Assembly: GCA_045650355.1 (NCBI GenBank)
Contig: JAZRRC010000023.1
Span: 1-39,525, forward strand
Direction: 5' to 3'
Source of the DNA: Candidatus Avispirillum sp.
GTDB taxonomy: Bacteria; Bacillota; Clostridia; Oscillospirales; CAG-272
Length of the DNA: 39,525 bases
Shown: in pieces, positions 12,511 to 32,603 of the stretch
How positions within the stretch are numbered: the first letter of the stretch is position 1
Layout: each line of letters opens with the position of its first letter
Translations under genes and position numbers: made by a program
The notes under the pieces: generated by a model
What the model saw: only the letters and a program-made list of their open reading frames with translations
The model's database searches: none
What the model was told of the DNA's origin: nothing

Positions 12511-12513
12511 GAT

Positions 12514-15358: not shown

Positions 15359-15370
15359 GGAGAATGCTGC

Positions 15371-16843: not shown

Positions 16844-17788
16844 ATGTCAAAAGTTACAATTATCGGCGCAGGAAGCGTTGGCTCTACAATTGCTTATACC
16901 CTTGCAACAGGCGGTTACGTGTCCGAGATCGTTATGATCGATATTAACGAGGAAAAGGCTCTCGGCGAGGCGCTTGATATCCGTCAGGGTATGCCCTTCT
17001 GCCCCCCTGTTTCCGTTTACGCAGGCACATACCGTGATGCTGCAGGAAGCGATATCGTAGTTCTCACATCCGGCCTTGCAAGAAAGCCCGGCCAGTCCAG
17101 ACTTGACCTTGCTCAGGCAAACGTAAACATCACAAAGTCTATCATTGCTCAGGTTACAAAGTATGCTCCTGATGCAACCTACGTTATCGTATCCAACCCC
17201 GTTGACGTAATCACATACGTATGGAACAAGATCTCCGGTCTCCCCGAGAACAAGATCATCGGCTCCGGTACAATTCTTGATACAGCACGTCTCCGTGCAA
17301 GAATCTCCGAGTACTATTCCATCAGCCAGCACAACGTTCACGCATACGTGTTCGGTGAGCACGGCGACTCCTCCTTCGTTCCCTGGTCTATTGCTAACAT
17401 CTCCAACATCCCCGTTGCAGAGTATCCCAAGGTAGCAACTCTCCAGGATGCTATCTATCCCGACCTTAACTATAAGGAAGTAGAGGAGTATATGAGAAAG
17501 TCCGGCGGACGTGTTATCCAGAGAAAGGGAGCTACATTCTATGCAGTTTCTCTCTCCGTATGCCACATCTGCAAGTGCCTTCTCAACGGTACAGATACAA
17601 CAATGACAGTTTCCACAATGATGCACGGCGAGTACGGCACCGATGACGTATGCCTCTCTACACTTAACGTAGTTGGTAAGGAAGGCATCCGCGGCAAGCT
17701 TCTCGTTAACCTTACAGACGAGGAGCAGGCACTTCTCAGAAACAGTGCAAACTGCCTCAAGGAAATCATTACTCAGATTGAGATCTAA
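16844..17788 (+). CDS. LDH-family 2-hydroxyacid dehydrogenase with an Arg at the Gln102-equivalent position (predicted malate dehydrogenase; could be lactate dehydrogenase)
   Basis: KVTIIGAGSVGST (NAD site). GEHGDSSFVPWS (LDH-type catalytic His loop). Substrate loop LTSGLARKPGQSRLDL, where canonical LDH has ...Q-K-P-G... (Arg codon AGA at 17081-17083). Confidence 0.85.
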   Translation: MSKVTIIGAGSVGSTIAYTLATGGYVSEIVMIDINEEKALGEALDIRQGMPFCPPVSVYAGTYRDAAGSDIVVLTSGLARKPGQSRLDLAQANVNITKSIIAQVTKYAPDATYVIVSNPVDVITYVWNKISGLPENKIIGSGTILDTARLRARISEYYSISQHNVHAYVFGEHGDSSFVPWSIANISNIPVAEYPKVATLQDAIYPDLNYKEVEEYMRKSGGRVIQRKGATFYAVSLSVCHICKCLLNGTDTTMTVSTMMHGEYGTDDVCLSTLNVVGKEGIRGKLLVNLTDEEQALLRNSANCLKEIITQIEI

Positions 17789-17803
17789 TTGGAGGATAAA
17801 TTA

Positions 17804-19180
17804 ATGAACTATCGTATTGAACACGACTCTATGGGCGAGGTTCAGGTACCCGCTGATAAGTACTGGGCAGCCCAGACAGAGCGTAGCCGCACAAACTTCC
17901 GTATCGGCGTAGATATCGAAACAATGCCCCGTGAGATCACTAAGGCTTTCGGTGTTCTCAAGAAGGCAGCAGCTATGGCAAACAATGCTCTCAAGCCCGA
18001 GAAGATGACAGACGAAAAGCTTGAGGTTATCTCCAAGGCTTGTGACGAGGTTATGTCCGGTGCTCTCAACGATCACTTCCCCCTCGTTGTATGGCAGACA
18101 GGTAGCGGTACTCAGTCTAACATGAACGCAAACGAGGTTATTGCAAACCGTGCAAACGAGCTTGCAGGCAAGAAGCTTTGCCATCCCAACGATGATATCA
18201 ACATGAGCCAGTCCTCCAACGATACATTCCCTACAGCAATGCACATCGCTGCTGTAGCTGCTATCGAGGATAAGCTTATTCCCGCAGTTGAGCTCCTCAT
18301 CGGCACATTCAAGCGCCTTGAAGAAGAGAACGAGGGCATCACAAAGAGCGGCCGTACACACCTTCAGGACGCAACTCCCGTTAAGTTCAGCCAGGAGATC
18401 AGCGGCTGGCGCTCCTCTCTCGAGATGGATATCTTCCTTCTCCGTAAGGCTCTCCCCGCACTCAGAACTCTCGCTCTCGGCGGTACTGCAGTTGGTACAG
18501 GTCTTAATGCTCCCGCAGGCTTTGACGTAAAGGTTGCTGAGGCTGTTTCCGAAATCACAGGTAAGGACTTCACAACAGCTGATAACAAGTTCCATGCTCT
18601 CACATCCAAGGACGAGCTCGTATTCGCTCACGGCGCTATCAAGGCTCTCGCTTGCGATATGATGAAGATAGCAAACGACGTTCGTTGGCTCGCATCCGGC
18701 CCCAGACTCGGTCTTGGCGAGATCTTCATTCCCGAGAACGAGCCCGGCTCTTCCATCATGCCCGGTAAGGTTAACCCCACTCAGTGCGAGGCTGTTACAA
18801 TGGTAGCAGTTCAGGTAATGGGTAACGACGTTGCAGTTTCCATGGCAGCATCTCAGGGTAACTTCGAGCTTAACGTATTCATGCCCGTTTGCATTTACAA
18901 CTTCCTCCAGTCTGCAAGACTTCTTGCAGAGGCTATCGTTTCCTTTAACGATAACTGCGCTGTTGGTATTGTTGCAAACAAGCAGAAGATGCATGATAAC
19001 CTTCATAATTCTCTTATGCTCGTAACAGCTCTCAACCCCTATATCGGCTATGAAAATGCGGCTAAGACTGCAAAGAAAGCATATCACGATAACATTTCTC
19101 TCAAGGAGGCTTGCGTTGAGCTCGGCTTCCTCACAGCAGAGAGATTTGATGAGGTCTTCAAGCCTGAGAACATGGCGTAA
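17804..19180 (+). CDS. fumC: class II fumarate hydratase
   Basis: [15 protein letters not shown] signature, with N-terminal [23 protein letters not shown]-type sequence. ATG at 17804 follows a GGAGG RBS; the track start at 17789 is TTG. Confidence 0.95.
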   Translation: [458 protein letters not shown]

Positions 19181-19199
19181 AGAAAGGACTGACCGAAAA

Positions 19200-19985
19200 A
19201 TGAAAATAGCATACTATCCCGGATGTACGCTGAAAAATAAAGCAAAGGATCTCGATCGCTATGCGATCGAGTCCTTGGCAGCCCTCGGCTGGGAGCTCGA
19301 AGAAATCGAGAATTGGCAGTGCTGCGGCGGTATGTATACCTCCGCTGCCGATGAGATCGCAACCAAGCTTCCCGCAGTTCGTGCTCTTGCAAACGGACGC
19401 GACAACGGCGGCAAGGTACTCACCGTATGCTCAGCGTGCTATAACGTACTTAAGCAGACAAACCATGAGTTTGTAAAGAACCCCGATTTCGACCGCCGCG
19501 TTAATAACTACCTCGCTCCCGATTTTGAATATCACGGCGAGGCAGAGGTTGTTCACTTCCTCGAGTTCCTTCGCGACACTATCGGATTTGATAACCTTGC
19601 AAAGAAGGTTGTAAAGCCTCTCGCAGGCAAGAAAATCGCAGCATACTACGGCTGCCTTCTCCTCCGCCCCTCCGAGGTTTTGCAGTTTGATTCTCCCGAG
19701 AATCCCAAGATCATTGAGGACTTTATCCGCGCTCTCGGTGCAGAGCCCGTTATCTACCCCATGAGAAACGAGTGCTGCGGCGGATATATCACCCTTGAAG
19801 ATAAGAATGCGGCTAAGAAGAGAAGCAACGCTGTTGTAGATAGCGCTGTTGAGATGGGCGCTGATTATATGATCACAGCTTGCCCCCTCTGCCAGTACAA
19901 TCTTGCAAAGAATGCGGCTGCAGATCTTCCCGTTCGCTATTTCACTGAGGTTCTGGCAGAAGCCCTCGGCCTCATAGAAGAATAA
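19200..19985 (+). CDS. hdrB: heterodisulfide reductase subunit B-like protein (two CCG domains)
   Basis: MKIAYYPGCT..., WQCCGG...CSACYN and AAYYGCLL...ECCGG...CPLCQYN form a duplicated CCG motif set. The internal ATG at 19200 is used; the upstream part of track ORF 19050 overlaps fumC. Confidence 0.88.
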   Translation: MKIAYYPGCTLKNKAKDLDRYAIESLAALGWELEEIENWQCCGGMYTSAADEIATKLPAVRALANGRDNGGKVLTVCSACYNVLKQTNHEFVKNPDFDRRVNNYLAPDFEYHGEAEVVHFLEFLRDTIGFDNLAKKVVKPLAGKKIAAYYGCLLLRPSEVLQFDSPENPKIIEDFIRALGAEPVIYPMRNECCGGYITLEDKNAAKKRSNAVVDSAVEMGADYMITACPLCQYNLAKNAAADLPVRYFTEVLAEALGLIEE

Positions 19986-19998
19986 AGGAGTGTCTGAA

Positions 19999-20382
19999 AT
20001 GGAAAATAAGAAGAAAGAACAGATCCTCCGCATGAGCGGCGCTGCAGTTCAGAAGTGCATGCGCTGCGGTAAGTGCTCAGCGACCTGTCCCTCCTACGAT
20101 GAGATGGAATTTCATCCTCATCAGTTTGTATATATGGTAGAAAAGGGTGACATTGATGCGCTCATGGCATCCGAATCCGTATATAAGTGCCTCACATGCT
20201 TTGCTTGCGTTGAGAGATGCCCCCGCGGTGTTGAGCCTGCAAAGGTTATCGAGGCTGTTCGCCTTGAGGCAATAAGACAGCAGGGCGCAAACCACCTGAA
20301 GCCCAACCAGATCCCCGCTCTCCTTGACGAGGACCTTCCCGGTCAGGCTCTCATGGCGGCATTCAGAAAATACGCGAAGTAA
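19999..20382 (+). CDS. hdrC: heterodisulfide reductase subunit C-like 2x[4Fe-4S] protein
   Basis: CMRCGKCSATCP and CLTCFACVERCP. An AAAGGAG RBS lies 8 nt upstream of the ATG at 19999. Confidence 0.85.
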   Translation: MENKKKEQILRMSGAAVQKCMRCGKCSATCPSYDEMEFHPHQFVYMVEKGDIDALMASESVYKCLTCFACVERCPRGVEPAKVIEAVRLEAIRQQGANHLKPNQIPALLDEDLPGQALMAAFRKYAK

Positions 20383-20397
20383 GGAGGAATAACCGAA

Positions 20398-22389
20398 ATG
20401 CAGAGAATTGGTGTATTTGTATGTCATTGCGGTACCAACATTGCAGGAACCGTAGACGTTAAGAGAGTTGCAGAAACTCTCGCTAAAGAGCCCGGCGTCG
20501 TTTATTCCATTGATTATACCTACATGTGCTCCGAGTCAGGACAGAACCTTATCAAGGACGCTATCAGAGACTATAAGCTCACAGGCGTTGTTGTTTGCTC
20601 CTGCTCCCCCAGAATGCACGAAAACACATTCCGTAAGGCTGCAACAGCAGCAGGTCTTAACCCCTACATGGTTGAGATCGCAAACATCCGTGAGCAGTGC
20701 TCCTGGATCCATAAGGATATTGTTGAAGCAACAGAGAAGGCAGTAATCCTCGGCCGTGCTGCGATCGCTAAGGTTCACCTTAACGCTCCTCTTAAGGCAG
20801 GCGAGTCTCCCGTAATCAAGAGAGCTCTCGTTATCGGCGGCGGTATCGCAGGTATCCAGACTGCTCTTGATATTGCAGATGCAGGCTTTGAGGTTGATAT
20901 CGTTGAGAAGCAGCCCACAATCGGCGGTAAGATGACACACCTCGATAAGACCTTCCCCACACTCGACTGTGCGGCTTGTATCCTCACACCTAAGATGGTT
21001 GAATGTGCTCAGAACGAGAACATCAACATCTATTCCTACAGCGAAGTAGATACAGTATCCGGCTTCGTTGGTAACTTCTCCGTTAAGATCAAGAAGAAGG
21101 CACGCTATGTTGACGAAACAAAGTGTACAGGCTGCGGAATCTGTACTGAAAAGTGCCCCCAGGAGAAGGTTCCCAATGTGCTCAATATGGGAATGGATAA
21201 CCGCCGTGCGGTTTATATCCCCTTCGCTCAGGCAGTACCTAAGGTTGCAACAATCGATGCTAACTACTGTACAATGATGAAGACCGGCAAGTGCGGTGTT
21301 TGCTCCAAGGTTTGTACAGCAGGCGCTATCGACTACACTCAGAAGGATGAGATCGTAGAGCGTCAGTACGGTGCTATCGTAGTAGCAACAGGCTTCAATC
21401 CTATTAATGTAGAAAAGTATGATGAGTATGCATACTCCCAGTCCAAGGACGTTATCACATCTCTCGAGTTCGAGCGTCTTACCAATGCGGCAGGCCCCAC
21501 ATCCGGTAAGCTCCTTCGTCCCTCCGACGGAAAGCATCCTCACACAATCGTGTTCGTTCAGTGCGTAGGCTCCAGATGCACAGCAGAGAAGGGCAAGAGC
21601 TACTGCTCCAAGATCTGCTGCATGTACACTGCAAAGCACGCAATGCTCACACGTGAAAAGTATCCCGATACAGACGTATACGTATTCTATATCGACGTAA
21701 GAACACCCGGTAAGAACTTTGATGAGTTCTATCGCCGTGCTGCCGAGGAATACGGCGTACATTATATCAAGGGCATGGTTGGTAAGGTTGCTCCCCGTGC
21801 AGACGGCACACTCGACGTTCAGGCGTCCGACCTTATCATGAACGAGCAGCTCCATATCAATGCAGACCTCGTAGTTCTTGCAGCTGCTATCGAGCCCGAT
21901 AAGTCCGCTCGTCCCCTTGCTACAAAGCTTACAGCAAGCATGGATACAAACGACTTCTTCACAGAAGCTCATCCTAAGCTTCGTCCCGTAGAATCCCCCA
22001 CAGCAGGTATCTTCCTCTCCGGCGCATGCCAGGGCCCCAAGGATATCCCCGAGACCGTATCTCAGGCAGGTGCGGCAGCGGCTAAGGTAATCGGCCTCCT
22101 TGCAAAGGATAAGCTCGTTACTAACCCCTGCGTGGCTAAATCCGATGAGAACCTTTGTAACGGATGCTCCCAGTGTGCAAACGTATGTCCCTACGGCGCT
22201 ATTACATATGCTGATAAGGAATTCAGAATGCCCGACCGTACAACAAAGATACGTCGTGTTGCTTCTGTTAACCCTGCAGTATGTCAGGGCTGCGGTGCTT
22301 GTACCGTAACATGTCCTTCCGGTGCTATGGACCTTCAGGGCTTCTCCAACAGACAAATTATGGCGGAGGTTGACGCAATATGCAAGTAA
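20398..22389 (+). CDS. hdrA: heterodisulfide reductase subunit A-like FAD/Fe-S protein
   Basis: IGVFVCHCGTNIAG start. FAD fold ALVIGGGIAGIQTALDIADAG. Four ferredoxin-type motifs (CTGCGICTEKCP, CGVCSKVC, CNGCSQCANVCP, CQGCGACTVTCP). 663 aa. Confidence 0.92.
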   Translation: MQRIGVFVCHCGTNIAGTVDVKRVAETLAKEPGVVYSIDYTYMCSESGQNLIKDAIRDYKLTGVVVCSCSPRMHENTFRKAATAAGLNPYMVEIANIREQCSWIHKDIVEATEKAVILGRAAIAKVHLNAPLKAGESPVIKRALVIGGGIAGIQTALDIADAGFEVDIVEKQPTIGGKMTHLDKTFPTLDCAACILTPKMVECAQNENINIYSYSEVDTVSGFVGNFSVKIKKKARYVDETKCTGCGICTEKCPQEKVPNVLNMGMDNRRAVYIPFAQAVPKVATIDANYCTMMKTGKCGVCSKVCTAGAIDYTQKDEIVERQYGAIVVATGFNPINVEKYDEYAYSQSKDVITSLEFERLTNAAGPTSGKLLRPSDGKHPHTIVFVQCVGSRCTAEKGKSYCSKICCMYTAKHAMLTREKYPDTDVYVFYIDVRTPGKNFDEFYRRAAEEYGVHYIKGMVGKVAPRADGTLDVQASDLIMNEQLHINADLVVLAAAIEPDKSARPLATKLTASMDTNDFFTEAHPKLRPVESPTAGIFLSGACQGPKDIPETVSQAGAAAAKVIGLLAKDKLVTNPCVAKSDENLCNGCSQCANVCPYGAITYADKEFRMPDRTTKIRRVASVNPAVCQGCGACTVTCPSGAMDLQGFSNRQIMAEVDAICK

Positions 22390-22817
22390 ACGAAAATTTC
22401 AAGCCCACCATTGTAGCCTTCTGCTGCAACTGGTGCTCATATGCGGGAGCAGACCTCTCCGGTACTAACCGTCTTCAGTACCCTGCAGACGTTAAGATCA
22501 TCCGTGTACCTTGCTCCTGCCGTGTTAACCCCATGTTCATCCTTCGTGCTTTCCAGCGCGGAGCTGACGGAGTTATCCTTTGCGGTTGCCACCCCGGCGA
22601 CTGCCACTACACAAGCGGCAACTACTTTGCCCGCCGCCGTATGACTCTCCTCTTCTCCATGCTTGACTACCTCGGTATCGAGCGTGACAGAACCCGTGTT
22701 GAATGGGTATCTGCAGCAGAGGGCGCAAAGTTTGCGGCTACTATGAACGAATTCACTCAGCACATCATTAAGCTGGGACCTAATCGTAGACTGGAGGATC
22801 TGAGATGCAGGAAGTAA
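22380..22817 (+). CDS. mvhD: MvhD/FlxD-like (methyl-viologen-reducing hydrogenase delta subunit family) protein
   Basis: VAFCCNWCSYAGADLSG...IRVPCSCRV...ILCGCHPGDCHY. It overlaps the hdrA stop by 10 nt. Confidence 0.9.
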   Translation: MQVNENFKPTIVAFCCNWCSYAGADLSGTNRLQYPADVKIIRVPCSCRVNPMFILRAFQRGADGVILCGCHPGDCHYTSGNYFARRRMTLLFSMLDYLGIERDRTRVEWVSAAEGAKFAATMNEFTQHIIKLGPNRRLEDLRCRK

Positions 22818-23782
22818 TGAAAAAGAGAGCAATAGAGCTTCTTTCTGATGGGACTGTATCCAAGGTTATCGGCTGGATCCCCGGCGAGTTTTCCTATGAT
22901 ATGACTCCCGCTGTTTTCACAACAGCAAAAGAAATTGAAGATAGCTTCGTTTATAACGAATTTTGCGGCGCAAACGTTTCAAAGTACGTTATGAAGGAGC
23001 AGAAGAAGGATAGCGAGGCAAAGATCCTCGTATTCCTTAAGCCCTGCGATACATATTCCTTTAACCGCCTTGTTGCGGAGTATAAGGTAAACCGTGCAGG
23101 CGTTTACGTTATCGGCGTAGGCTGCGACGGCATGGCAGACGTTGAGAAGATCAAGGCAAAGGGTATCGACGGTATCATCGGTATCAGCGCAGACGGCGAT
23201 TCCTATAAGGTTGAAACCGTTTACGGCACAGAGACAGTTGCAAAGGCTGAGGCTATGGCTGAGAGATGCGTAAACTGCAAGTCAAAGAAGCTTGTTGTTT
23301 ATGATGAGATCATAGGCGAGGACGGCGAGGTAGCTGATTCCGGCCGCTTTGCAGACGTTGAAAAGCTTGAGGCAATGACAGCTGAGGAGCGTTATAATTT
23401 CTGGAGAGGCGAGCTTTCCAGATGTATCCGTTGTAACGCATGCCGCAACGTTTGCCCCGCTTGTACTTGCGAAACCTGTATCTTTGATAACCCTGCTTCC
23501 GGTGTTTCCCAGAAGGCAGCGGCTGATACGTTCGAGGAAAATATGTTCCACGTAATCCGCGCATTCCACGTAGCGGCAAGATGTACTGACTGCGGTGAGT
23601 GCTCCAGAGTATGTCCCGAGCATATTCCCCTCCACCTCCTCAACAGAAAGTTCATTAAGGACATCAACGAGCTTTACGGCGACTATCAGGCAGGCGAGGA
23701 CTCCGAGTCCAAGACTCCCCTTACCTCCTATACCTTTGATGACTGCGAGCCCTCTGTTGTTCATGAAAGGGGTAACGAATAA
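22805..23782 (+). CDS. 4Fe-4S dicluster protein (FlxC-like)
   Basis: CIRCNACRNVCPACTC and CTDCGECSRVCPEHIP. It overlaps both neighbours. An alternative ATG lies at 22817. Confidence 0.8.
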   Translation: MQEVMKKRAIELLSDGTVSKVIGWIPGEFSYDMTPAVFTTAKEIEDSFVYNEFCGANVSKYVMKEQKKDSEAKILVFLKPCDTYSFNRLVAEYKVNRAGVYVIGVGCDGMADVEKIKAKGIDGIIGISADGDSYKVETVYGTETVAKAEAMAERCVNCKSKKLVVYDEIIGEDGEVADSGRFADVEKLEAMTAEERYNFWRGELSRCIRCNACRNVCPACTCETCIFDNPASGVSQKAAADTFEENMFHVIRAFHVAARCTDCGECSRVCPEHIPLHLLNRKFIKDINELYGDYQAGEDSESKTPLTSYTFDDCEPSVVHERGNE

Positions 23783-24810
23783 TGCTTTATCTTTCCTATG
23801 ATAAGCTTGACCTTTTCTTTGAAAAGGCATCTGAAAAGCTTAACGTATACGTGCCTGTAGATACAGGCAAGGGCGCTTCCTATAAGAAGTGGGAGAAGGG
23901 ATGCGAAGTTTCCAAGGCTCTCCATACAGTAAGAAGCGCAAAGGATTTCTTCTTCCCCCAGACAGAAAACCTTGTTGAATTTAAGGTAGACGGCAAGAAG
24001 ATCGAGATCATCGATCCCCGCCGTGAAACTGAGGATTACGCAGTATTCGGCGTTCGCGCTTGCGACGTTAAGAGCTTTGGTATCCTTGATAAGGTATTCC
24101 TCTCTGAGCCTGTAGACAGCTACTATAAGAACAGAAGAGATCACGGTGTTATCATCGGTCTTTCCTGCTCCCGCCCCTCCGAGACATGCTTCTGTACCAC
24201 TTTCGGTATCGATGCTGCAACTCCTATGGCAGACGTTGACCTCACAGAGGCTGATGGCGGCTACTTCTTCAAGGCAAACACAGAGAAGGGAAGCGCATTC
24301 ATCGCATCCCTCGGTGATATCTTTGAAGAGGGCGATGAGGCTAAGGCTGAGGACGCAAAGGCAAAAACTCGTGAGATCATGAAGAAGCTTCCTCTCGCTT
24401 CCCTCACAACTGAGGGCTTTGGCGCAGATAAGCTTGAAGAAATGTTCGGCGATGCAAGATGGGCAGAGCTCTCCGAGGCTTGTCTCGGCTGCGGCACATG
24501 CACATTCGTTTGCCCCACATGCCAGTGCTACGATATCCGCGACTACGATACAGGTCACGGCGTTCAGCGTTACCGCTGCTGGGACTCCTGTATGTATTCC
24601 GACTTTACAAAAATGGCTCACGGCAACCCCCGTCTCACACAGAAAGAGAGATTCCGCCAGAGATTTATGCATAAGCTGGTTTATTTCCCCTCCAACAATG
24701 ACGGCGAGTACGGCTGTGTAGGCTGCGGCAGATGTGTTGCATCCTGCCCCATCAATATGAACATCGTTAAAGTAATGAAGAAATTTGCAACGGAGGCTGA
24801 CAATGACTAA
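23782..24810 (+). CDS. 4Fe-4S protein, AsrA / sulfhydrogenase-beta / FlxB-like
   Basis: FGVRACDVKS..., CLGCGTCTFVCPTCQCYD and CVGCGRCVASCP. 1-nt overlap with the upstream gene. Confidence 0.82.
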   Translation: MLYLSYDKLDLFFEKASEKLNVYVPVDTGKGASYKKWEKGCEVSKALHTVRSAKDFFFPQTENLVEFKVDGKKIEIIDPRRETEDYAVFGVRACDVKSFGILDKVFLSEPVDSYYKNRRDHGVIIGLSCSRPSETCFCTTFGIDAATPMADVDLTEADGGYFFKANTEKGSAFIASLGDIFEEGDEAKAEDAKAKTREIMKKLPLASLTTEGFGADKLEEMFGDARWAELSEACLGCGTCTFVCPTCQCYDIRDYDTGHGVQRYRCWDSCMYSDFTKMAHGNPRLTQKERFRQRFMHKLVYFPSNNDGEYGCVGCGRCVASCPINMNIVKVMKKFATEADND

Positions 24811-25630
24811 CGAAACTCTTATTCCCTATCTCGGAGAGGTTACCGATATCCGTATCGATACTCCCGATGTCAAGACCTTCCGAGTACTGACACCCGACGG
24901 CGTAAAGCCCTTCGAGCATATGCCCGGTCAGTGCGCAATGCTCTCCATTCCCGGCGTAGGCGAGGCTATGTTCTCTATCACATCCTCTCCCACAAATAAG
25001 GATTATATGGAGTTCTCCATCAAGAAGTGCGGATGCCTCACAGAGTGGCTCCACGCTATGGATGTAGGACAGCAGATCACAATCCGCGGACCTTACGGTA
25101 AGCCCTTCCCCGTAGAGGAAGACCTCAAGGGTAAGGACCTCCTCTTCATCGCAGGCGGTATCGGTCTTGCTCCTCTTCGTTCCGTAATCAACTACGTTCG
25201 TGATAACCGTGCAAACTACGGCAGCGTTCAGATCATTTACGGTGCACGTTCCATGGATGACCTCGTTGACTACAAGGAGATCATCGATGAGTGGATGCAG
25301 GACAGCGGTATCGAGGTTAACCTCACAATCGACCGCGAGCAGGAGGGCTGGGACGGCCACGTTGGCTTCATTCCCGCTTTCGTTAAGGAGCTCAACCCCG
25401 ATCTCAAGAAGACCGTTCTCATGTGCGGTCCTCCCATCATGATCAAGTTCACACTTGCAGAGCTTATGGGTCTCGGATTTGAGAAGACTCAGGTTTATAC
25501 AACAATGGAGCTCAGAATGAAGTGCGGCGTAGGTAAGTGCGGTCGTTGCAACATCGGCGATAAGTACGTTTGCAAGGACGGCCCCGTATTCCGTTTTGAC
25601 GAGCTTGATGAACTTCCGGATGAATATTGA
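24803..25630 (+). CDS. FAD/NAD(P)H oxidoreductase with a C-terminal [2Fe-2S] site (AsrB / sulfhydrogenase-gamma / FlxA / PyrK-like)
   Basis: MFSITSSP (FAD RxYS-type). LLFIAGGIGLAPLRS (NAD(P) site). CGVGKCGRCNIGDKYVCKDGPVF. ATG at 24803 follows GGAGG; the track start at 24785 is TTG. Confidence 0.88.
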   Translation: MTNETLIPYLGEVTDIRIDTPDVKTFRVLTPDGVKPFEHMPGQCAMLSIPGVGEAMFSITSSPTNKDYMEFSIKKCGCLTEWLHAMDVGQQITIRGPYGKPFPVEEDLKGKDLLFIAGGIGLAPLRSVINYVRDNRANYGSVQIIYGARSMDDLVDYKEIIDEWMQDSGIEVNLTIDREQEGWDGHVGFIPAFVKELNPDLKKTVLMCGPPIMIKFTLAELMGLGFEKTQVYTTMELRMKCGVGKCGRCNIGDKYVCKDGPVFRFDELDELPDEY

Positions 25631-25644
25631 TCCGACATAAAGAA

Positions 25645-26334
25645 ATGGAGAAAACAACAATGGAAAATATGGTTAATATATTCCTTTACGGCAAGAAGTA
25701 TTCTGTTCCTGCAAACCTCACAATCATGAGCGCTATGGAATATGCAGGATACCAGCTTGTTCGTGGCTGCGGCTGCCGTAACGGATTCTGCGGCGCTTGC
25801 GCTACCATTTACAGAATCAAGGGTGACAACGAGCTTCATGCTTGCCTTGCTTGTCAGACAACTGTTGAGGATAACATGTATATCGCAACACTCCCCTTCT
25901 TCCCCCTTGCAAAGCAGGTATACGATATCGAAAAGGTAGCAACAACTGAGGCTGTTATGATGCAGCTCTACCCTGAGATCTACGCTTGCGTAGGCTGTAA
26001 CGCTTGTACAAAGGCTTGTACACAGGGCCTTAACGTAATGCAGTACATCGCATACGCTCAGAGAGGCGACTTTGAGGCTTGCGCTGAGGAGTCCTTCGAC
26101 TGCGTAATGTGCGGCGTTTGCTCTTCCCGTTGCCCTGCAGGCATTTCTCATCCCCAGGTTGCAATGCTTGCTCGCCGTATCAACGGTAAGTACCTTGCTC
26201 CCGCTTGCGGCCACCTTGAGGACCGTGTAAAGGAGATCAAGGACGGCACATTCACAGAGCTTATCGAGGCTCTCATGCAGAAGCCTATTGAGGAGCTCAA
26301 AGAGCTTTATAACACACGTGAGATCGAGAAGTAA
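25645..26334 (+). CDS. frdB: succinate dehydrogenase/fumarate reductase iron-sulfur subunit-like protein
   Basis: N-terminal 2Fe-2S-like CGCRNGFCGACA...C. CVGCNACTKAC and CVMCGVCSSRCP. The start is uncertain (ATG at 25645, 25660 or 25669). Confidence 0.75.
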   Translation: MEKTTMENMVNIFLYGKKYSVPANLTIMSAMEYAGYQLVRGCGCRNGFCGACATIYRIKGDNELHACLACQTTVEDNMYIATLPFFPLAKQVYDIEKVATTEAVMMQLYPEIYACVGCNACTKACTQGLNVMQYIAYAQRGDFEACAEESFDCVMCGVCSSRCPAGISHPQVAMLARRINGKYLAPACGHLEDRVKEIKDGTFTELIEALMQKPIEELKELYNTREIEK

Positions 26335-26348
26335 GGAGGAAAGAGAAA

Positions 26349-27953
26349 ATGTATTCTGAAAAGTATCAGGAGTCTCTGGCTGCAGTTGCAGCGGCAAGAG
26401 AAGCGAATATCGCTATGGAGCCCGCTCGTATGACTGCAGAGCAGAAGGAGACTCTTCTCAAGACATACCATCCCGACTATAAGGAGGATCAGTTCTCCAC
26501 TCTCGCAATCGGTCCCAACAAGGGCGATAAGGTTCCCCACGAGCTTTGCGAGATGCTTCAGGCTCACTCCAGAATCACAGCTGACAGTGTAGACCTTACA
26601 AACCCTGACTACGAGTGCGACGTGCTTATCATCGGTGCTGGCGGCGCAGGTACTGCTGCTGCTATCGAGGCACACGAGGCAGGCGCTGACGTTATGATCG
26701 TAACTAAGCTTCGTATGGGCGATGCTAACACAATGATGGCAGAGGGCGGCATCCAGGCTGCTGATAAGCCCAACGACTCTCCCGCAATCCACTTCGTTGA
26801 CGCATTCGGCGGCGGTCACTTCGCTGCAAAGCGCGACCTCCTTGCTAAGCTCGTTTGCGATGCTCCCGAGGCTATCAAGTGGCTCTCCGATCTCGGCGTT
26901 GAGTTCGATAAGGAAGAGGACGGCACAATGGTAACAACCCACGGTGGCGGTACTTCCAGAAAGAGAATGCACGCAGCTAAGGACTATTCCGGTGCTGAGA
27001 TCATGAGAACTCTCCGTGATGAGGTTCTCAACCGTGGCATCAACGTTGTAGATTTCACATCTGCTATCGAGCTTATCCTTGATGAGAACGGTAAGGCAGC
27101 AGGTGCAGTTCTTATGAACATGGAAACAAAGGATCTCCTCGTTGCTAAGGCTAAGACTGTTGTTATCGCAACAGGCGGTGCAGGCCGTATGCATTACCAG
27201 GGCTTCCCCACATCCAACCACTACGGTGCAACAGCTGACGGTCTTGTTCTCGGTTACAGAGCAGGAGCTAAGCTTCTCTACGCTGAAACACTTCAGTATC
27301 ATCCCACAGGTGCTGCATTCCCCGAGCAGATCTTCGGTGCTCTTGTAACTGAGAAGGTTCGTTCTCTCGGTGCAAAGCTCGTTAACTGCAACGGTGAAGT
27401 ATTCATGCATCCCCTTGAGACACGTGACGTAACTGCAGCTTCCATCATCCGTGAGTGCTCCGACCGTGCAAACGGTATCGACACAGGTAACGGCCTTGCA
27501 GTATGGCTCGATACACCTATGATCGAGGCTATCGGCGGCGAGGGTACAATCGAAGCTAGAATCCCCGCAATGATGAGAATGTTCGGCGAGTACGGCATCG
27601 ATATCCGTAAGGAGCCTATCCTTATCTACCCCACACTCCACTACCAGAACGGCGGTCTCGACATCACAGTTGACGGTATGACAACAAACGTTGAGAACCT
27701 CTTCGTTGCAGGTGAGGCAGTTGGCGGTATCCACGGTAAGAACAGACTTATGGGTAACTCCCTCCTCGATATTATCGTATTTGGTAGAAACGCAGGTCAG
27801 AACGCAGCTAAGGCTGCAAAGACTGCTACAGTTGGCGCACTCTCTCTCGATCACGTAACAAAGTTCGAGGCTGAGATCGCAGAGGCCGGCATCGAGACAG
27901 ATGCAGTTTCTCCCAAGCTCCTTCCTAACTATACAAAGCAGAAGAACATCTGA
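26349..27953 (+). CDS. frdA: fumarate reductase/succinate dehydrogenase-family flavoprotein, soluble type (no covalent-FAD His)
   Basis: DVLIIGAGGAGTAAAIEA (FAD). NTMMAEGGIQAA (compare SHT..AQGGI). LQYHPTG. HGKNRLMGNSLLDIIVFGRNAG. It lies next to the FrdB-like gene. Confidence 0.85.
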   Translation: MYSEKYQESLAAVAAAREANIAMEPARMTAEQKETLLKTYHPDYKEDQFSTLAIGPNKGDKVPHELCEMLQAHSRITADSVDLTNPDYECDVLIIGAGGAGTAAAIEAHEAGADVMIVTKLRMGDANTMMAEGGIQAADKPNDSPAIHFVDAFGGGHFAAKRDLLAKLVCDAPEAIKWLSDLGVEFDKEEDGTMVTTHGGGTSRKRMHAAKDYSGAEIMRTLRDEVLNRGINVVDFTSAIELILDENGKAAGAVLMNMETKDLLVAKAKTVVIATGGAGRMHYQGFPTSNHYGATADGLVLGYRAGAKLLYAETLQYHPTGAAFPEQIFGALVTEKVRSLGAKLVNCNGEVFMHPLETRDVTAASIIRECSDRANGIDTGNGLAVWLDTPMIEAIGGEGTIEARIPAMMRMFGEYGIDIRKEPILIYPTLHYQNGGLDITVDGMTTNVENLFVAGEAVGGIHGKNRLMGNSLLDIIVFGRNAGQNAAKAAKTATVGALSLDHVTKFEAEIAEAGIETDAVSPKLLPNYTKQKNI

Positions 27954-27968
27954 TAGGAGGCGCAAACA

Positions 27969-29216
27969 ATGAATCTTTTCGGCGGTGTTATTCCTATTAC
28001 TGGAGTTTCATTCTTCCTTTTCTGCGTGTTCGCGATCCTCGCTGTAGGCTATGCCCTTGGTAGAATCACTATCAAGGGCGTGTCCCTCGGCGACGCGGGC
28101 GTATTTATCATCGCGCTTCTCTTTGGCGCACTTTTCTGCAGTGACCTTATGCCCGAGCCTGTTGTGTTCGAGGAGTCCTGGCTTTCCATCATCGAGAGCT
28201 TCGGCCTTATTCTCTTCGTAACAAGCGTTGGCTTCATTGCAGGTCCCAAGTTCTTCGCAAACATGAAGAAGAACTTCAAGAGCTACGTTCTTCTCGGCGT
28301 TATCATCATCCTCGCAGGCGGTCTTTCCGCTTTCGGATGCATTATGCTCGGCAAGCACGTATTCGGCTACGGTGCTTCCACCATTACCGATATCGATGGC
28401 TTCGTTGCTATGATCGTAGGTCTTCTTTCCGGCTCCCTTACTTCTACTCCCGCATTCTCTGCTGCTAAGGCAACAGTTGCGGCTGAGTATCAGAGCCTTG
28501 TTTCCGTAGGTCACGGTATTGCTTATATCTTCGGTGTTGTAGGCGTTGTGCTCTTCGTTCAGCTCATTCCTAAGCTCACAAAGGCTAACATGGATGATGA
28601 GAGAGCAAAGATCTCCGTTCCTGCAAAGGAAGAGGGCAAGGTAAAGAAGGTAGTTAAGCTTCTCCACCTCGACCATATGGGCGTTTGCGCATTCTCCATT
28701 GCAGCTATTCTCGGTACAGTTGTTGGTAAGATCAAGATCCCCATGAGCGGCGACGGTCTCGAGGGCACTTGCTTCTCTCTCACAACAACAGGCGGATGCC
28801 TCCTCGTTTCCCTTATCATCGGCCACTTCGGCAGAGTTGGTAAGGTAAGCCTTATGCCTGCAGAGACCACCCTCAAGCTCTTCCGTGAGCTTGGTCTCGT
28901 TCTCTTCCTTGTAGGCGCAGGTATCCCCGGCGGTGCAGACTTCGTTGCAAACTTCAACGGTATGTACTTCGTATACGGTATCATCATGACAATCGTTCCT
29001 ATGATCCTCGGATTCCTCTTCGCGAAGTACGTTCTTAAGCTTCCCCTTCTCAACAACCTCGGTTCTCTCACAGGCGGTATGACATCCACACCCGCTCTCG
29101 GAACCCTTATCGGAACAGCAGGAACAGAGGACGTTGCAGCAGCATATGCGGCAACATATCCTATTGCACTTATCGCAGTAGTTCTCGTATCCCAGTTCCT
29201 CATTATTATATTCTGA
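27969..29216 (+). CDS. AAE-family (AspT/YidE/YbjL/SucE-like) transporter, putative dicarboxylate (succinate) exporter
   Basis: Polytopic membrane protein with two homologous halves, each starting with an LG..I.G.SLG-like segment (LGRITIKGVSLGDAG; HFGRVGKVSL). The central RCK_C-type region looks absent (415 aa). Confidence 0.7.
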   Translation: MNLFGGVIPITGVSFFLFCVFAILAVGYALGRITIKGVSLGDAGVFIIALLFGALFCSDLMPEPVVFEESWLSIIESFGLILFVTSVGFIAGPKFFANMKKNFKSYVLLGVIIILAGGLSAFGCIMLGKHVFGYGASTITDIDGFVAMIVGLLSGSLTSTPAFSAAKATVAAEYQSLVSVGHGIAYIFGVVGVVLFVQLIPKLTKANMDDERAKISVPAKEEGKVKKVVKLLHLDHMGVCAFSIAAILGTVVGKIKIPMSGDGLEGTCFSLTTTGGCLLVSLIIGHFGRVGKVSLMPAETTLKLFRELGLVLFLVGAGIPGGADFVANFNGMYFVYGIIMTIVPMILGFLFAKYVLKLPLLNNLGSLTGGMTSTPALGTLIGTAGTEDVAAAYAATYPIALIAVVLVSQFLIIIF

Positions 29217-29362: not shown

Positions 29363-30217
29363 ATGAACAAATATTATGAACAGATCATGGAGCTGAAGGG
29401 AGCAGAGGAGCTGTGCGCCCTTGTAAAGCGCTGGGATATCCTCTCTGAAAACATCACTAAGCGCTCGCCCGATGCTCCTATAGTTTTGCCCGATATCTTT
29501 TTGTATACCCGACCCGGATACGGAAATACAAGACTTCTCAATCTGCTTTCCGAATACCTGAGCTCAAAAAACAATCTTATGAGCTTTTACGGTGACGTGA
29601 AGTTCTTTGAATTCAAGCTTGATTACTGCAGACCCGACAGTGAATTTAACGAGCTGTACAGACTTATGGAGTCTGTTCAGGTTGCCGCAGGATTTCGCAG
29701 CGAGTTCAAGGGTGTTATCCGCATAAACGTGGATGAATGGATCGGTCATCACAATGAAAAGCATTTCCTTGATTTTCTGCAGTTTCTTCAGATCAATACT
29801 GCCTACTGGCTCATCGTTCTCAGCCTTTCAAATTACAGAGAAAACGGCGAGGCGGGCGAGCTTGAGGCGGTTGTCCGTATGTATCTGAGAATTGAGAAGG
29901 TCAAAATAAATCTCCCCGAAAACAAGGAGCTTGTTGAGTATGCCTCTGAGTATCTCAGAAAATACGGCTTCGAGCTTGACAGCTCTGCCAAGGAATTACT
30001 TTGCGCCTCCCTGGACGTTTTGAGAAACAATAAGTATTTTTATGGCTTGCATACAATAAAGGATATGTGCAACGACATAGTATACGTCCTCTTCTCAAAG
30101 GAAACAGTGGCAGACAAGACTATAACTGCAGATATGCTGGAAGATTTCTCTGCAGAGAGTGAATATATCAAGAGAACTGTCTTCAAGATCAAAAAGACAG
30201 GCACCATAGGATTCTGA
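29363..30217 (+). CDS. degenerate AAA+ (SpoVK/CbbX-like) protein with Lys-to-Asn in Walker A
   Basis: LYTRPGYGNTRLLNLL where GxPGTGKT is expected (Asn codon at 29525-29527). Walker-B-like VIRINVDEW. 284 aa. Confidence 0.6.
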   Translation: MNKYYEQIMELKGAEELCALVKRWDILSENITKRSPDAPIVLPDIFLYTRPGYGNTRLLNLLSEYLSSKNNLMSFYGDVKFFEFKLDYCRPDSEFNELYRLMESVQVAAGFRSEFKGVIRINVDEWIGHHNEKHFLDFLQFLQINTAYWLIVLSLSNYRENGEAGELEAVVRMYLRIEKVKINLPENKELVEYASEYLRKYGFELDSSAKELLCASLDVLRNNKYFYGLHTIKDMCNDIVYVLFSKETVADKTITADMLEDFSAESEYIKRTVFKIKKTGTIGF

Positions 30218-30229
30218 GAGGTGACGGGA

Positions 30230-31693: not shown

Positions 31694-31712
31694 TTTTTCG
31701 GAGCAGCTTATT

Positions 31713-32603
31713 ATGATTGATAAAAACGGTCAGAAAATAATCGGGGATAAGGATAAATACGACTCTGAATTTGCACTTAAGGAAATAAAATTCTTTTTTA
31801 AGGGCTTTCTCAGTCAGCCCGATGACAAAAAGGCATACTCTATCTCGAAAATGATCCACCAATACGTTAAGAATACAAAGCAGTATGAGCCTGTAGCTGA
31901 GTATATGAAGGAGCTGGAGGACTATGCCCACGTTACAAGGAATGATGATTTTGTCTGGCATCTTGTTTATATCAGAAGATTGCAGGCAGATGTATTGAAG
32001 GCAGGCGGCAAGGCTGATTATAATGAGATCTTTGAGGCCAAATATGCTGCAGCCAAGCACTTTGAAAATATATGCAAGATATATCCCAGCAAGTTCAACA
32101 ACCGTGCCAGGGCAAGTGAATACATGAGTGCTGCTATCGTTCTGCATAATGCAGGGTGCTTTTCGAAGATATCTGAAAAGCTGAAGGAAATATGCGTCTA
32201 CGTTGAAGAGCTGTTCAAGGACCTGGTGCCCGAGGGTAAGGACGTTTACTATGATACAGGCAGACTGCTTTATTACTTTAAATTTTATTATGCAGCAAAC
32301 AGCATCCAGGGAAAAGACAGCGAGTGCATCGAAAACCTGAACAAGGCCATATATTATTCGCTGGAAGGCTTTGCGCTTGATAAAACCAATGATTTCTACG
32401 TCAGACAGATCGCAATGTTTTTTGAATTGGGAATAAAGTATAAAGGGTTTGTATGTGATGATAATATCAAAAAGCTGGAAGACCTTTGCAGGGAGGTTTC
32501 AGTGATTGCCAAAGAAAGCGGAAGTCCCTTTACCGATGCCTTAAGCAGACTTGAAGCGGTCAGAAAAAAGGCTGTCGAGATTATGGAAAAATCCAAAAAA
32601 TAA
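31713..32603 (+). CDS. hypothetical all-helical (TPR-like?) protein
   Basis: 296 aa ORF 19 nt downstream of the T4CP-like gene. Composition is helical-repeat-like. No motifs recognised. Confidence 0.65.
   Translation: MIDKNGQKIIGDKDKYDSEFALKEIKFFFKGFLSQPDDKKAYSISKMIHQYVKNTKQYEPVAEYMKELEDYAHVTRNDDFVWHLVYIRRLQADVLKAGGKADYNEIFEAKYAAAKHFENICKIYPSKFNNRARASEYMSAAIVLHNAGCFSKISEKLKEICVYVEELFKDLVPEGKDVYYDTGRLLYYFKFYYAANSIQGKDSECIENLNKAIYYSLEGFALDKTNDFYVRQIAMFFELGIKYKGFVCDDNIKKLEDLCREVSVIAKESGSPFTDALSRLEAVRKKAVEIMEKSKK

Follow-up and report, generated by a model that had tools for sequence, protein, structure and literature searches.

Coupling of fumarate reduction to an Flx-Hdr module has been proposed for Pseudoclostridium thermosuccinogenes, whose 'succinate operon' (CDQ83_RS03365-03315) encodes a fumarate hydratase, a seven-gene Flx-Hdr set, a two-gene fumarate reductase and a putative succinate transporter (PMC7282089, citing the preprint of Koendjbiharie & van Kranenburg 2019 for the proposal). 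The genes of that operon are transcribed together, and CO2 limitation induces them about 4-fold; succinate formation is abolished at high H2 (PMC7282089), which would be expected if reduced ferredoxin has to be disposed of during fumarate reduction. Tubeworm symbionts and Thioflavicoccus mobilis have rTCA clusters (korABCD / tfrAB / flxABCD-hdrABC) in which the genes of a soluble, Tfr-like fumarate reductase stand among those of Flx-Hdr, and it has been proposed that a complex supplies this reductase with electrons (Rubin-Blum et al. 2019, PMC6315080). The idea is thus already in print and not new (P. thermosuccinogenes, 2019/2020; tubeworm-symbiont rTCA clusters, 2019). The Hdr/Flx-linked fumarate reductase design is very common. 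In line with the sequence-only reading of the DNA studied here, no biochemically characterised (purified or assayed) enzyme of the same composition was found in the literature searched. HdrA is the bifurcating subunit in methanogen Hdr; for FlxABCD-HdrABC itself the only evidence for bifurcation that we know of is genetic.

The window analysed here, a stretch of 39,525 nucleotides, carries nine genes on its plus strand at 19200-27953: hdrB, hdrC, hdrA, mvhD/flxD, flxC, flxB, flxA, a frdB-like and a frdA-like gene. All nine are present and belong to the families named in the sequence-only reading; between neighbours there is either an overlap of 1-13 nt or a gap of at most 29 nt. None of the nine proteins contains a TM-like segment and all are predicted to be soluble, which agrees with the earlier claim that a membrane anchor is missing, and the cofactor ligands are intact throughout. 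The block also exceeds its earlier outline and extends to twelve genes (16844-29216), with mdh and fumC directly upstream and an AspT/SucE-family transporter gene directly downstream, all on the plus strand.

The first of the flanking genes (16844..17788) encodes an LDH-like malate dehydrogenase (Ldh_1_N/Ldh_1_C) that would convert oxaloacetate to malate. NCBIfam labels the product L-LDH, a name that we set aside because the 102-equivalent specificity position within the motif GLARKPGQSRLDL is occupied by Arg, a residue which we take to specify oxaloacetate/malate (Wilks 1988). The second (17789..19180) encodes the class II fumarate hydratase FumC (malate to fumarate; TIGR00979 fumC_II, 706 bits, cut-off 664.75), and an identity as aspartase was rejected, the aspartase models scoring under their own cut-offs. 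Both genes lie upstream of the hdr genes in 46/53 informative loci. The transporter (27969..29216) has about 10 TM segments and matches PF06826 Asp-Al_Ex (191 bits, two repeats) and TIGR01625 (135 bits, exceeding the cut-off); it follows frdA immediately in 48 of 71 informative loci and is probably a succinate exporter or C4-dicarboxylate exchanger. On computed gene content, the best reading of the twelve genes is a 'succinate operon' leading from oxaloacetate to exported succinate. In this window, as in at least 11 other loci, the operon adjoins a rex / sensory-hydrogenase / group-B hydrogenase cluster, whose hydrogenase is a monomeric group-B [FeFe] enzyme.

A CCG-domain HdrB, an HdrC and a bifurcating-type HdrA had been proposed for the first three genes of the block, and the domain analysis bears this out. 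HdrB (19200-19985) matches PF02754 twice and aligns with 8RVV_B and 5ODC_B at 130 bits; its two CCG motifs correspond to two non-cubane [4Fe-4S] sites, and its 10 Cys are all kept in 57/57 orthologues, at an overall identity of only ~60%. Its best NCBIfam matches, SdhE of MFR and HdrB, are both under cut-off (SdhE 160 bits, cut-off 500). HdrC (19990-20382; Fer4_8/Fer4_17; CoB_CoM_SS_C, 68 bits) contains two CxxCxxCxxxC motifs for 2x[4Fe-4S], with the 8 Cys invariant in 58/58. HdrA (20398-22389), a FAD and multi-[4Fe-4S] flavoprotein, aligns over its full length with 5ODC_A (residues 3-660, 693 bits) including all ferredoxin domains, and reaches 792 bits with the HdrA2 model.

The next four products likewise correspond to the MvhD, two 4Fe-4S proteins and AsrB/FlxA-like subunit named before. 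MvhD/FlxD (22380-22817; PF02662 FlpD, 185 bits), the [2Fe-2S] electron-entry subunit, starts 10 nt inside the end of hdrA. The FlxC-like Fe-S protein (22805-23782) has Fer4_8/Fer4_9 at residues 203-274 and Cys clusters conserved in 65/65, while its N-terminal ~200 amino acids have no Pfam match. FlxB (23782-24810; PF17179 Fer4_22, 108 bits) is an AsrA / sulfhydrogenase beta-like Fe-S protein (ShyB 201 bits, AsrA 133 bits). FlxA (24803-25630), which has GGAGG ahead of its start ATG at 24803, combines FAD_binding_6, NAD_binding_1 and DHODB_Fe-S_bind as an NAD(P)H-oxidising FAD/[2Fe-2S] subunit and also matches AsrB and HydG (197 bits each).

For the last two genes the earlier assignments hold with refinements. 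The mechanical ORF of the FrdB-like protein runs from 25627, but the true start is probably the ATG at 25660, after GGAG (25660-26334; Fer2_4/Fer2/Fer4). The SdhB-like character is supported by an SdhB-type [2Fe-2S] motif, C-x4-C-x2-C-x14-C; it is followed by two full [4Fe-4S] motifs, and no [3Fe-4S] motif is present in the FrdB sequence, a pattern which we take to be that of TfrB and type-E SdhB. The Cys ligands are conserved in 75-76/76. FrdB matches the SdhB N-terminus and TfrB positions 17-100, and the NCBIfam TfrB model is covered in pieces by FrdB (17-100), HdrC (121-220) and HdrB (255-487), so that the three may be read as a split TfrB. The FrdA/TfrA-like flavoprotein (26349-27953; FAD_binding_2, 226 bits), the predicted catalytic subunit, has TfrA as its best NCBIfam match (337 bits, under the TfrA cut-off), in line with the kinship with TfrAB suggested before. 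Its C4-dicarboxylate-binding and catalytic residues H318, T334, E335, R338, R359, H431 and R466 are invariant in 81/81, as is N127 in place of the covalent-FAD His. We take the Asn as a sign that FAD is bound non-covalently, as it is in soluble enzymes that work only as reductases. The C-terminal domain of SdhA/FrdA is missing from the protein, whose N-terminus is extended by a conserved stretch of 88 residues; the earlier assignment included neither feature. The closest fold to its AF2 model (pLDDT 89) is E. coli FrdA (1KF6_A, TM 0.72), with NadB at rank 32.

Conservation of the block among relatives had been suggested as a check. Judged by gene order it is no chance juxtaposition, because the identical nine-gene order is found in 56/57 informative species genomes, i.e. 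related genome loci with enough upstream sequence. Ruminococcus flavefaciens, a classical succinate producer, is among these genomes. The hdr genes adjoin frdBA in 32 of 35 informative metagenome loci, and frdBA remains beside hdr genes, in shuffled orders, even in much more remote environmental relatives: korDABG-hdrA-mvhD-hdrC-hdrB-frdB-frdA (L084, L089-L093), kor-hdrA-mvhD-flxCBA-frdBA (L118, L124, L126, L127), or the four-gene module hdrC-hdrB-frdB-frdA alone (L138 and others). Across roughly 45-90% identity, frdB abuts hdrB, flxA, mvhD or korG in numerous arrangements that are independent of one another, a pattern typical of subunits of one complex. The reductase core itself has no strict need for Hdr, because FrdBA also occurs without Hdr/Flx, as in Congzhengia L037 (a close relative with 83-84% identity and a CitMHS transporter upstream) and in loci L087 and L116; in marine Gammaproteobacteria (L081/L082) its partner is a NADH module of simple, NuoF-like type.

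Based on the flanking mdh, fumC and transporter genes, the invariant active site and the conserved hdr-frdBA linkage, which support the Hdr/Flx-dependent fumarate reductase put forward in the sequence-only reading, we consider it reasonably likely that the operon encodes a soluble, quinone-independent fumarate reductase wired to an NADH-oxidising Hdr/Flx module (2 NADH + fumarate + Fd(ox) -> 2 NAD+ + succinate + Fd(red)). Oxaloacetate would be converted to malate by the LDH-like Mdh, to fumarate by FumC and then to succinate, which would leave through the AspT/SucE-type transporter. In the presumed complex NAD(P)H, either NADH or NADPH, would be oxidised at FlxA and electrons would move by way of FlxB, FlxC and MvhD/FlxD to the HdrA FAD, where the pair is probably bifurcated. 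The high-potential electron would travel through HdrC and the two non-cubane clusters of HdrB to FrdB (2x[4Fe-4S], [2Fe-2S]), and from there to the non-covalent FAD of FrdA and to fumarate. The low-potential electron would reach ferredoxin via the HdrA ferredoxin domains, and Fd(red) may be re-oxidised, e.g. by the adjacent hydrogenase or by an Rnf/Ech enzyme encoded elsewhere, which would recover part of the energy otherwise conserved by membrane fumarate respiration. With textbook potentials of ~-320 mV for NADH, ~+30 mV for fumarate and ~-450 mV for ferredoxin, such a reaction is thermodynamically allowed. The enzyme would then amount to a methanogen thiol:fumarate reductase merged with a heterodisulfide reductase, bypassing the free thiol/disulfide shuttle, because FrdA corresponds to TfrA with a truncated C-terminus, and HdrC, HdrB and FrdB together to TfrB in split form.

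The CCG cysteines, kept despite the fast evolution of HdrB, and the natural fusion of FrdB with FrdA speak for this fumarate reductase. Against it we count that no Rex operator was located near the operon and that both intact CCG sites would fit a real thiol/disulfide intermediate too; the reading is drawn from the genes of the window, and a membrane QFR elsewhere in the genome would be a further caveat. A thiol-mediated two-step scheme like that of methanogens is nevertheless unlikely in our view. Flx-HdrABC would reduce an unnamed low-molecular-weight or protein disulfide with NADH, co-reducing ferredoxin, and the diffusible thiols would be re-oxidised with fumarate by a Tfr-like unit, made up either of HdrCB-FrdBA or of FrdBA and another HdrB encoded elsewhere. 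Both CCG motifs are strictly conserved as in catalytic HdrB and TfrB, the stand-alone hdrC-hdrB-frdB-frdA modules (L138-L143, no hdrA within 10 kb) resemble a split TfrAB, and the P. thermosuccinogenes Flx-Hdr is described as passing electrons to 'ferredoxin (and thiols)' (PMC7282089). However, the single HdrB/HdrC set would need to be both disulfide reductase and thiol oxidase, FrdB itself lacks a CCG domain, and the operon contains no gene for a DsrC-type thiol carrier. Moreover, we know of no CoM/CoB synthesis in these bacteria, and CCG proteins can also be subunits that simply transfer electrons or form a quinone site, e.g. SdhE, the best NCBIfam match of HdrB.

We think it rather improbable that the enzyme is a non-bifurcating soluble NAD(P)H:fumarate reductase, in which Hdr/Flx serve as no more than a wire or scaffold without any reduction of ferredoxin, or in which fumarate receives electrons confurcated from Fd(red) and NADH. 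Thermodynamics would allow NADH by itself to reduce fumarate, and the core occurs with the NuoF-like module or alone (L037, L087), but a complete bifurcation-type HdrA with MvhD, retained in 56/57 genomes, would be costly for a mere wire. In environmental loci, genes for Kor, a ferredoxin-dependent OFOR, recur among those of hdr-frdBA (cf. PMC6315080) and therefore indicate ferredoxin coupling; the operon also adjoins a ferredoxin-type hydrogenase. We give still less weight to separate, merely co-regulated enzymes, with another acceptor for Flx-Hdr and FrdBA fed by ferredoxin or another donor: FrdBA lacks adjoining hdr/flx genes in the close relative L037, but the varied abutments of frdB argue against this, as does the TfrB fusion, which joins CCG and SdhB-like domains in one polypeptide. 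Finally, although NadB models score close to SdhA/FrdA models (267 vs 279 bits), no curated family cut-off is reached and the catalytic residues are common to both proteins, it is very improbable that the flavoprotein is an L-aspartate oxidase or reduces an unsaturated acid other than fumarate, given the TfrA top match, the fold ranking, the dedicated Fe-S partner (naturally fused as FrdB-FrdA in P0121; NadB has none to our knowledge), the flanking fumC, mdh and SucE-family transporter genes and the lack of nadA or nadC nearby.

Compared with known systems, the favoured fumarate reductase shares the flavoprotein fold and active-site residues of E. coli FrdABCD (1KF6) but lacks the FrdC/D anchors, the covalent-FAD His and the C-terminal domain, and its FrdB has 2x[4Fe-4S] rather than [4Fe-4S] and [3Fe-4S]. 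As in type-E (non-classical) succinate:quinone oxidoreductases and MFR (SdhABE), an HdrB-like two-CCG subunit goes with an SdhB-like subunit in which [4Fe-4S] replaces [3Fe-4S]; the low SdhE score, the truncated flavoprotein and the lack of membrane or quinone association set it apart. From methanogen TfrAB and MvhAGD-HdrABC (5ODC), to which FrdA, the TfrB tiling and the full-length alignments of HdrA, HdrB and HdrC relate it, it differs in splitting TfrB over three genes, in a FrdA that is ~120 residues shorter at the C-terminus and extended at the N-terminus, and in having NAD(P)H entry via Flx instead of a hydrogenase (MvhA/G) and presumably no CoM/CoB. The methylene-THF reductase MetFV-HdrCBA-MvhD of Moorella/Sporomusa is a precedent for an HdrABC-MvhD module on a reductase with a non-disulfide substrate, its terminal reductase and donor being unlike those here.

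All seven subunit types of Desulfovibrio vulgaris FlxABCD-HdrABC (Ramos et al. 2015) are present with the expected cofactor motifs, in inverted order (hdrBCA-flxDCBA); the acceptor proposed there is a DsrC disulfide linked to ethanol metabolism, whereas here a fumarate reductase is attached and DsrC is absent. Environmental relatives of the window's FrdA (L118, L124, L126, L127) have the same kind of layout as the clusters of PMC6315080, which serve autotrophic rTCA carbon fixation and include 2-oxoglutarate:ferredoxin oxidoreductase, while the window has no kor genes and belongs to a fermentative succinate pathway. A close counterpart is the P. thermosuccinogenes operon, compared here by its published description. 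The present operon differs in its host, uncultured gut/rumen Oscillospiraceae-type Clostridia of ~50% GC, and in including mdh, and shares with it the reported composition and gene counts (one fumarate hydratase, seven Flx-Hdr, two fumarate reductase and one transporter gene) and the proposed function, NADH-dependent fumarate reduction coupled to ferredoxin reduction.

Searches against Pfam, NCBIfam and PDB sequences identify nine consecutive plus-strand genes at 19200-27953, which bears out the gene content that the sequence-only reading had claimed for this block. HdrB, read from the ATG at 19200, contains two CCG domains (130 bits to the HdrB chains 8RVV_B and 5ODC_B), HdrC carries two CxxCxxCxxxC motifs, and HdrA aligns over residues 3-660 of 663 with the M. 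wolfeii HdrA of 5ODC (693 bits). These are followed by MvhD/FlxD (FlpD, 185 bits), the Fe-S protein FlxC with two [4Fe-4S] clusters, the AsrA/ShyB-like FlxB (Fer4_22) and, from the ATG at 24803, the AsrB/HydG-like FlxA, which combines FAD_binding_6, NAD_binding_1 and a DHODB-type [2Fe-2S] domain. The block ends with an FrdB-like Fe-S protein of 224-235 amino acids, probably starting at the ATG at 25660, and an FrdA-like flavoprotein of 534 amino acids (FAD_binding_2). These three starts were refined by reading the gene junctions, where adjacent genes overlap by 1-13 nt or are separated by at most 29 nt. Long minus-strand ORFs over the operon (e.g. 20536-22356) were treated as shadow ORFs of the plus-strand genes, to which the strong family matches belong. 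The absence of a membrane anchor, also noted earlier, holds as well: the operon has no anchor gene, and all nine proteins of the block lack TM-like segments in a simple hydropathy scan.

The composition is that of the FlxABCD-HdrABC type. FlxA retains the domains that bind NAD(P)H, FAD and [2Fe-2S], with the cysteine ligands kept in 71/71 sequences, and the Fe-S proteins FlxB and FlxC, the MvhD-like FlxD, an HdrA with FAD and [4Fe-4S] sites, HdrC and a two-CCG HdrB are all present. All ten cysteines of HdrB and all eight of HdrC are kept in every orthologue, even though HdrB shares only about 60% identity, compared to about 81% for HdrA. Related species genomes (loci L001-L080) show the same uneven divergence from the window, with HdrA, MvhD, FumC, FrdB and FrdA about 80-90% identical and HdrB, FlxC and FlxB only about 60%; the cysteine ligands of these three fast-diverging proteins are still invariant.

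The flavoprotein belongs to the SdhA/FrdA/TfrA/NadB superfamily. Of the curated NCBIfam models it scores best with TfrA (337 bits), followed by SdhA/FrdA (279) and NadB (267), all below their cut-offs. The TfrA equivalog NF004900, of about 546 residues with a C-terminal domain, has a cut-off of 718 bits and is matched only over positions 6-425 of 546, and the C-terminal domain of SdhA (PF02910) finds no match in FrdA. Compared with solved SdhA/FrdA structures the active-site set is complete, comprising H318, T334-E335-x-x-R338, the proton donor R359, H431 and R466. In contrast, the histidine that carries covalent 8-alpha-FAD is replaced, as Asn127 aligns with SdhA His45 and the corresponding histidine of Sdh1. 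The catalytic and substrate residues and Asn127 are invariant in 81/81 sequences, and the same residues are kept in family members down to 38% identity. FrdA further has a conserved N-terminal extension of 88 residues, which is confidently modelled (AF2 model, pLDDT 89, pTM 0.90). The closest fold to this model is E. coli FrdA (1KF6_A, TM 0.72), while NadB appears at rank 32. An identity as NadB, L-aspartate oxidase, was rejected on the score with TIGR00551 (267 bits against a cut-off of 452.75); moreover, FrdA has an Fe-S partner and mdh/fumC neighbours, unlike the stand-alone nadA/nadC setting of NadB.

In FrdB, an SdhB-type [2Fe-2S] motif precedes two complete [4Fe-4S] motifs with all ligands conserved; the second of these is a full CxxCxxCxxxCP rather than a [3Fe-4S] motif. 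In one metagenomic relative (P0121) the Fe-S protein and the flavoprotein form a single chain of 727 amino acids, which is direct evidence that FrdB and FrdA are subunits of one enzyme. The fusion gene lies at 5250-7433 of its locus (L083), and hdr/flx genes are absent from the 5 kb upstream.

The operon is larger than the sequence-only reading stated, with two genes directly upstream and one directly downstream of the block. The first gene (16844-17788) encodes an LDH-family dehydrogenase that carries an arginine at the substrate-specificity position (GLARKPGQSRLDL). Following the classical Gln102Arg rule, which distinguishes LDH-like malate dehydrogenases, the label L-lactate dehydrogenase was rejected in favour of malate dehydrogenase. 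The gene, probably a malate dehydrogenase, passes the NCBIfam cut-offs for L-lactate dehydrogenase and would be mis-named by automated annotation. The second gene (17789-19180) is a class II fumarase above the equivalog cut-off of fumC_II; aspartase was rejected, as the aspA models score below theirs. Downstream, 27969-29216 encodes a transporter of the AspT/YidE/YbjL family with about ten TM segments, a family that includes the Corynebacterium succinate exporter SucE. With mdh and fumC upstream and a SucE-family transporter downstream, the predicted operon would therefore encode the path from oxaloacetate via malate and fumarate to succinate, and its export.

A redox cluster at 10539-16795 precedes the operon. 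It comprises Rex, an APH-type kinase, two small tandem thioredoxin-like [2Fe-2S] ferredoxins (12009-12248 and 12253-12510), a sensory HydS-type [FeFe] hydrogenase with a PAS domain, a PP2C/SpoIIE phosphatase and a monomeric group-B [FeFe] hydrogenase (TIGR04105 above cut-off). At least 11 related loci (e.g. L032, L035, L044, L048) also have parts of it flanking the succinate operon, on either side. A search with two consensus forms and up to three mismatches gave no Rex operators near the operon, with counts at chance level, and scans for sigma-70 promoters and intrinsic terminators gave the same counts as shuffled controls. An extended -10 sequence (TGTATAAT) upstream of mdh was spotted by eye. 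Rfam has no match across the whole window.

Elsewhere in the window, a run of six minus-strand genes at 1479-9825 resembles a defence island. Two of them encode a 1049-aa SF1 helicase (3098-6247, AAA_11/AAA_12) and a 395-aa protein containing a second-palm domain of Cas10/Cmr2 (7030-8217), and the other four ORFs have no Pfam match. Directly after the transporter the GC content falls from about 50% to 41-43% (29363-33000), in a stretch that holds a 284-aa ORF of unknown function and a TraG/VirD4-type T4SS coupling protein (30221-31693). The GC drop together with the coupling protein suggests the edge of a conjugative element.

Matches to more than 8000 protein clusters make the FrdA family a very common one; the top 120, at least 85% identical, are named only 'FAD-binding protein'. 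We scanned one genome per species and took the best 80 loci, all at least 74% identical. These come from gut and rumen Clostridia, namely Oscillospiraceae, Acutalibacteraceae, Ruminococcus including R. flavefaciens, Yeguia hominis, Congzhengia and Faecousia. By tblastn synteny in these best 80 loci, the order hdrB-hdrC-hdrA-mvhD-flxC-flxB-flxA-frdB-frdA on one strand is found in 56 of the 57 loci with enough upstream sequence, mdh and fumC are also found in 46/53, and the transporter lies directly downstream in 48/71. The sole exception among the 57 is a Congzhengia sp. MAG (L037, 83-84% identity), where a CitMHS-family transporter precedes frdBA (8079-11605) and hdr/flx genes were not found within 10 kb; either they lie elsewhere in this genome or another donor is used.

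The link between Hdr and frdBA persists in more distant loci at about 45-55% identity to the window, in other arrangements. In 32 of 35 informative metagenome loci hdr or mvhD lies beside frdBA, and the gene directly upstream of frdB is hdrB (17), flxA (6), flxC-like (3), korG (2) or mvhD (1). One environmental locus (L144) has a gene order identical to that of the window. In environmental contigs, genes for a kor-type four-subunit 2-oxoacid:ferredoxin oxidoreductase are found repeatedly among the hdr and frdBA genes (L084, L089-L093, L118, L124, L126-L128, L149, L153), as in L084 with the order korDABG-hdrA-mvhD-hdrC-hdrB-frdB-frdA and no flx.

Other loci carry hdrC-hdrB-frdB-frdA alone (L138 at 7871-11665, L139-L143, L147, L150, L163), with no hdrA seen within the available flank of up to 10 kb. 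By their gene content these stand-alone modules resemble a bacterial TfrAB in split form or a fumarate reductase similar to type E. Upstream of L138 there are only unrelated genes (Ser/Thr kinase, IF-2B family), giving no clue to the donor. In marine Gammaproteobacteria (L081/L082, 7366-10891) FrdB-FrdA is followed by a NuoF-like subunit (Complex1_51K and NADH_4Fe-4S) that replaces Hdr/Flx. The FrdA of these loci is 46% identical and has the same N-terminal extension, and the pair is a candidate for a simple soluble NADH:fumarate reductase. FrdBA or the flavoprotein alone occurs in some other distant members. Together with the NuoF-like partner, the gene arrangements of these members show a modular FrdBA core with an exchangeable donor module. 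A further member (L086, 6001-8357, 43% identity) has the flavoprotein gene ahead of that for the Fe-S subunit, an inverted order, and lacks a nearby redox partner; its protein cluster includes a sequence annotated as Prochlorococcus sp. MIT 1201, which is unexpected for an oxygenic phototroph.

How the block might work is suggested by the NCBIfam TfrB model, which is covered piecewise by FrdB (17-100), HdrC (121-220) and HdrB (255-487). Thus, at the level of sequence, HdrC, HdrB and FrdB would together represent a split TfrB, and FrdA a truncated TfrA. In methanogen Tfr, CoM-SH and CoB-SH are oxidised at CCG clusters and the electrons pass on to fumarate, while methanogen HdrABC reduces the heterodisulfide at the same kind of CCG cluster and bifurcates electrons to ferredoxin. 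Here there is a single HdrCB set, placed between a complete HdrA-MvhD module and FrdBA, and the simplest reading is a merged complex. FlxA would oxidise NAD(P)H, and FlxB, FlxC and MvhD would carry the electrons to the FAD of HdrA. From there a high-potential branch would run through HdrC, HdrB, FrdB and the FAD of FrdA to fumarate, and a low-potential branch to ferredoxin, so that 2 NADH, fumarate and oxidised ferredoxin would yield succinate and reduced ferredoxin. Textbook potentials permit NADH-driven fumarate reduction coupled to ferredoxin reduction. As far as sequence analysis reaches, the earlier proposal of an Hdr/Flx-dependent fumarate reductase is supported, with the complex, the donor and the bifurcation as proposed features. 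We hold with moderate confidence the full reading that this is a genuine bifurcating fumarate reductase, that it is the main route of succinate formation and of energy recovery by ferredoxin/H2 in a great many quinone-free gut and rumen Clostridia including R. flavefaciens, and that the HdrB clusters act as a pure relay into the split Tfr rather than as a disulfide-reducing site.

The most serious rival is a two-step scheme with a diffusible thiol, given that both CCG sites of HdrB are intact and that stand-alone HdrCB-FrdBA modules exist; we consider it unlikely. No bacterium of this group is known to produce CoM or CoB, which in the form of CoM-SH and CoB-SH are the donors of TfrAB. The ten HdrB cysteines kept invariant in so divergent a protein fit the merged complex. 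A non-bifurcating NADH:fumarate reductase is quite unlikely in our estimate; ferredoxin-linked partners recur in the form of the kor genes and of the group-B hydrogenase cluster here and in the other loci, which again fits the merged, bifurcating complex. It appears improbable that the Hdr/Flx and Frd proteins are two separate enzymes, merely co-regulated. A flavoprotein that does not act on fumarate is highly improbable.

Succinate is a major cross-feeding metabolite of gut and rumen, a propionate precursor and a host signal. The textbook route of fumarate reduction depends on a quinol:fumarate reductase in the membrane, and quinones are not known from many of the Clostridia that form succinate. 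A soluble enzyme coupled to Hdr/Flx would account for the succinate that these organisms form. It would recover part of the drop of about 350 mV between NADH and fumarate as reduced ferredoxin, which could yield H2 or, via Rnf/Ech, an ion gradient. Fumarate would join the few terminal acceptors of flavin-based bifurcation, and succinate output would be tied to the partial pressure of H2, a link of relevance to methane mitigation in the rumen and to bio-succinate production. If true, this would be a class of bifurcating enzyme without biochemically demonstrated precedent. As the operon is spread over at least 80 species-level genomes and the family over thousands of protein clusters, the question is easy to test in cultured hosts. 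The analysis confirms the observation of the block and extends it by mdh, fumC, the transporter and a wide conserved distribution. Its added value lies in this very wide distribution, in reading the core as a split Tfr and in the evidence for exchangeable donor modules, which together make a clean biochemical test worthwhile.

A search of the literature, mostly outside subscription journals, yielded no report of such an enzyme being purified or assayed, nor any paper tying it to R. flavefaciens or to its breadth in gut Clostridia, and PMC6776011, PMC5861303 and a 2024 HdrA preprint contain nothing specific on a bifurcating fumarate reductase. The idea itself has been published before. A 'succinate operon' of P. 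thermosuccinogenes has been described with a fumarate hydratase, seven Flx-Hdr genes, two fumarate reductase genes and a putative succinate transporter (PMC7282089, 2020). It is about 4-fold induced under CO2 limitation, and high H2 abolishes succinate formation in this organism (PMC7282089). Its composition is matched by the window genes 17789-29216, as compared by published locus-tag layout. The arguments of a 2019 preprint (10.20944/preprints201912.0288.v1) are taken here as relayed by PMC7282089. Tubeworm symbionts and Thioflavicoccus mobilis have rTCA clusters in which korABCD and tfrAB are interleaved with flxABCD-hdrABC, and one complex feeding both enzymes has been proposed (PMC6315080, 2019); the environmental kor-hdr-frdBA loci echo these clusters. 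The window system, from an uncultured Clostridia bacterium of gut or rumen, belongs to a kind of enzyme that had already been proposed and is not categorically new. Compared to TfrAB, the single TfrB-type chain of an SdhB-like Fe-S domain and two CCG domains is absent and split over frdB, hdrC and hdrB. Compared to classical FrdABCD/SdhABCD, the system lacks the membrane anchor, the covalent-FAD histidine, PF02910 and the [3Fe-4S] motif, while FrdA shares with these enzymes the His, Thr-Glu-x-x-Arg, proton-donor Arg, His and Arg of the active site.
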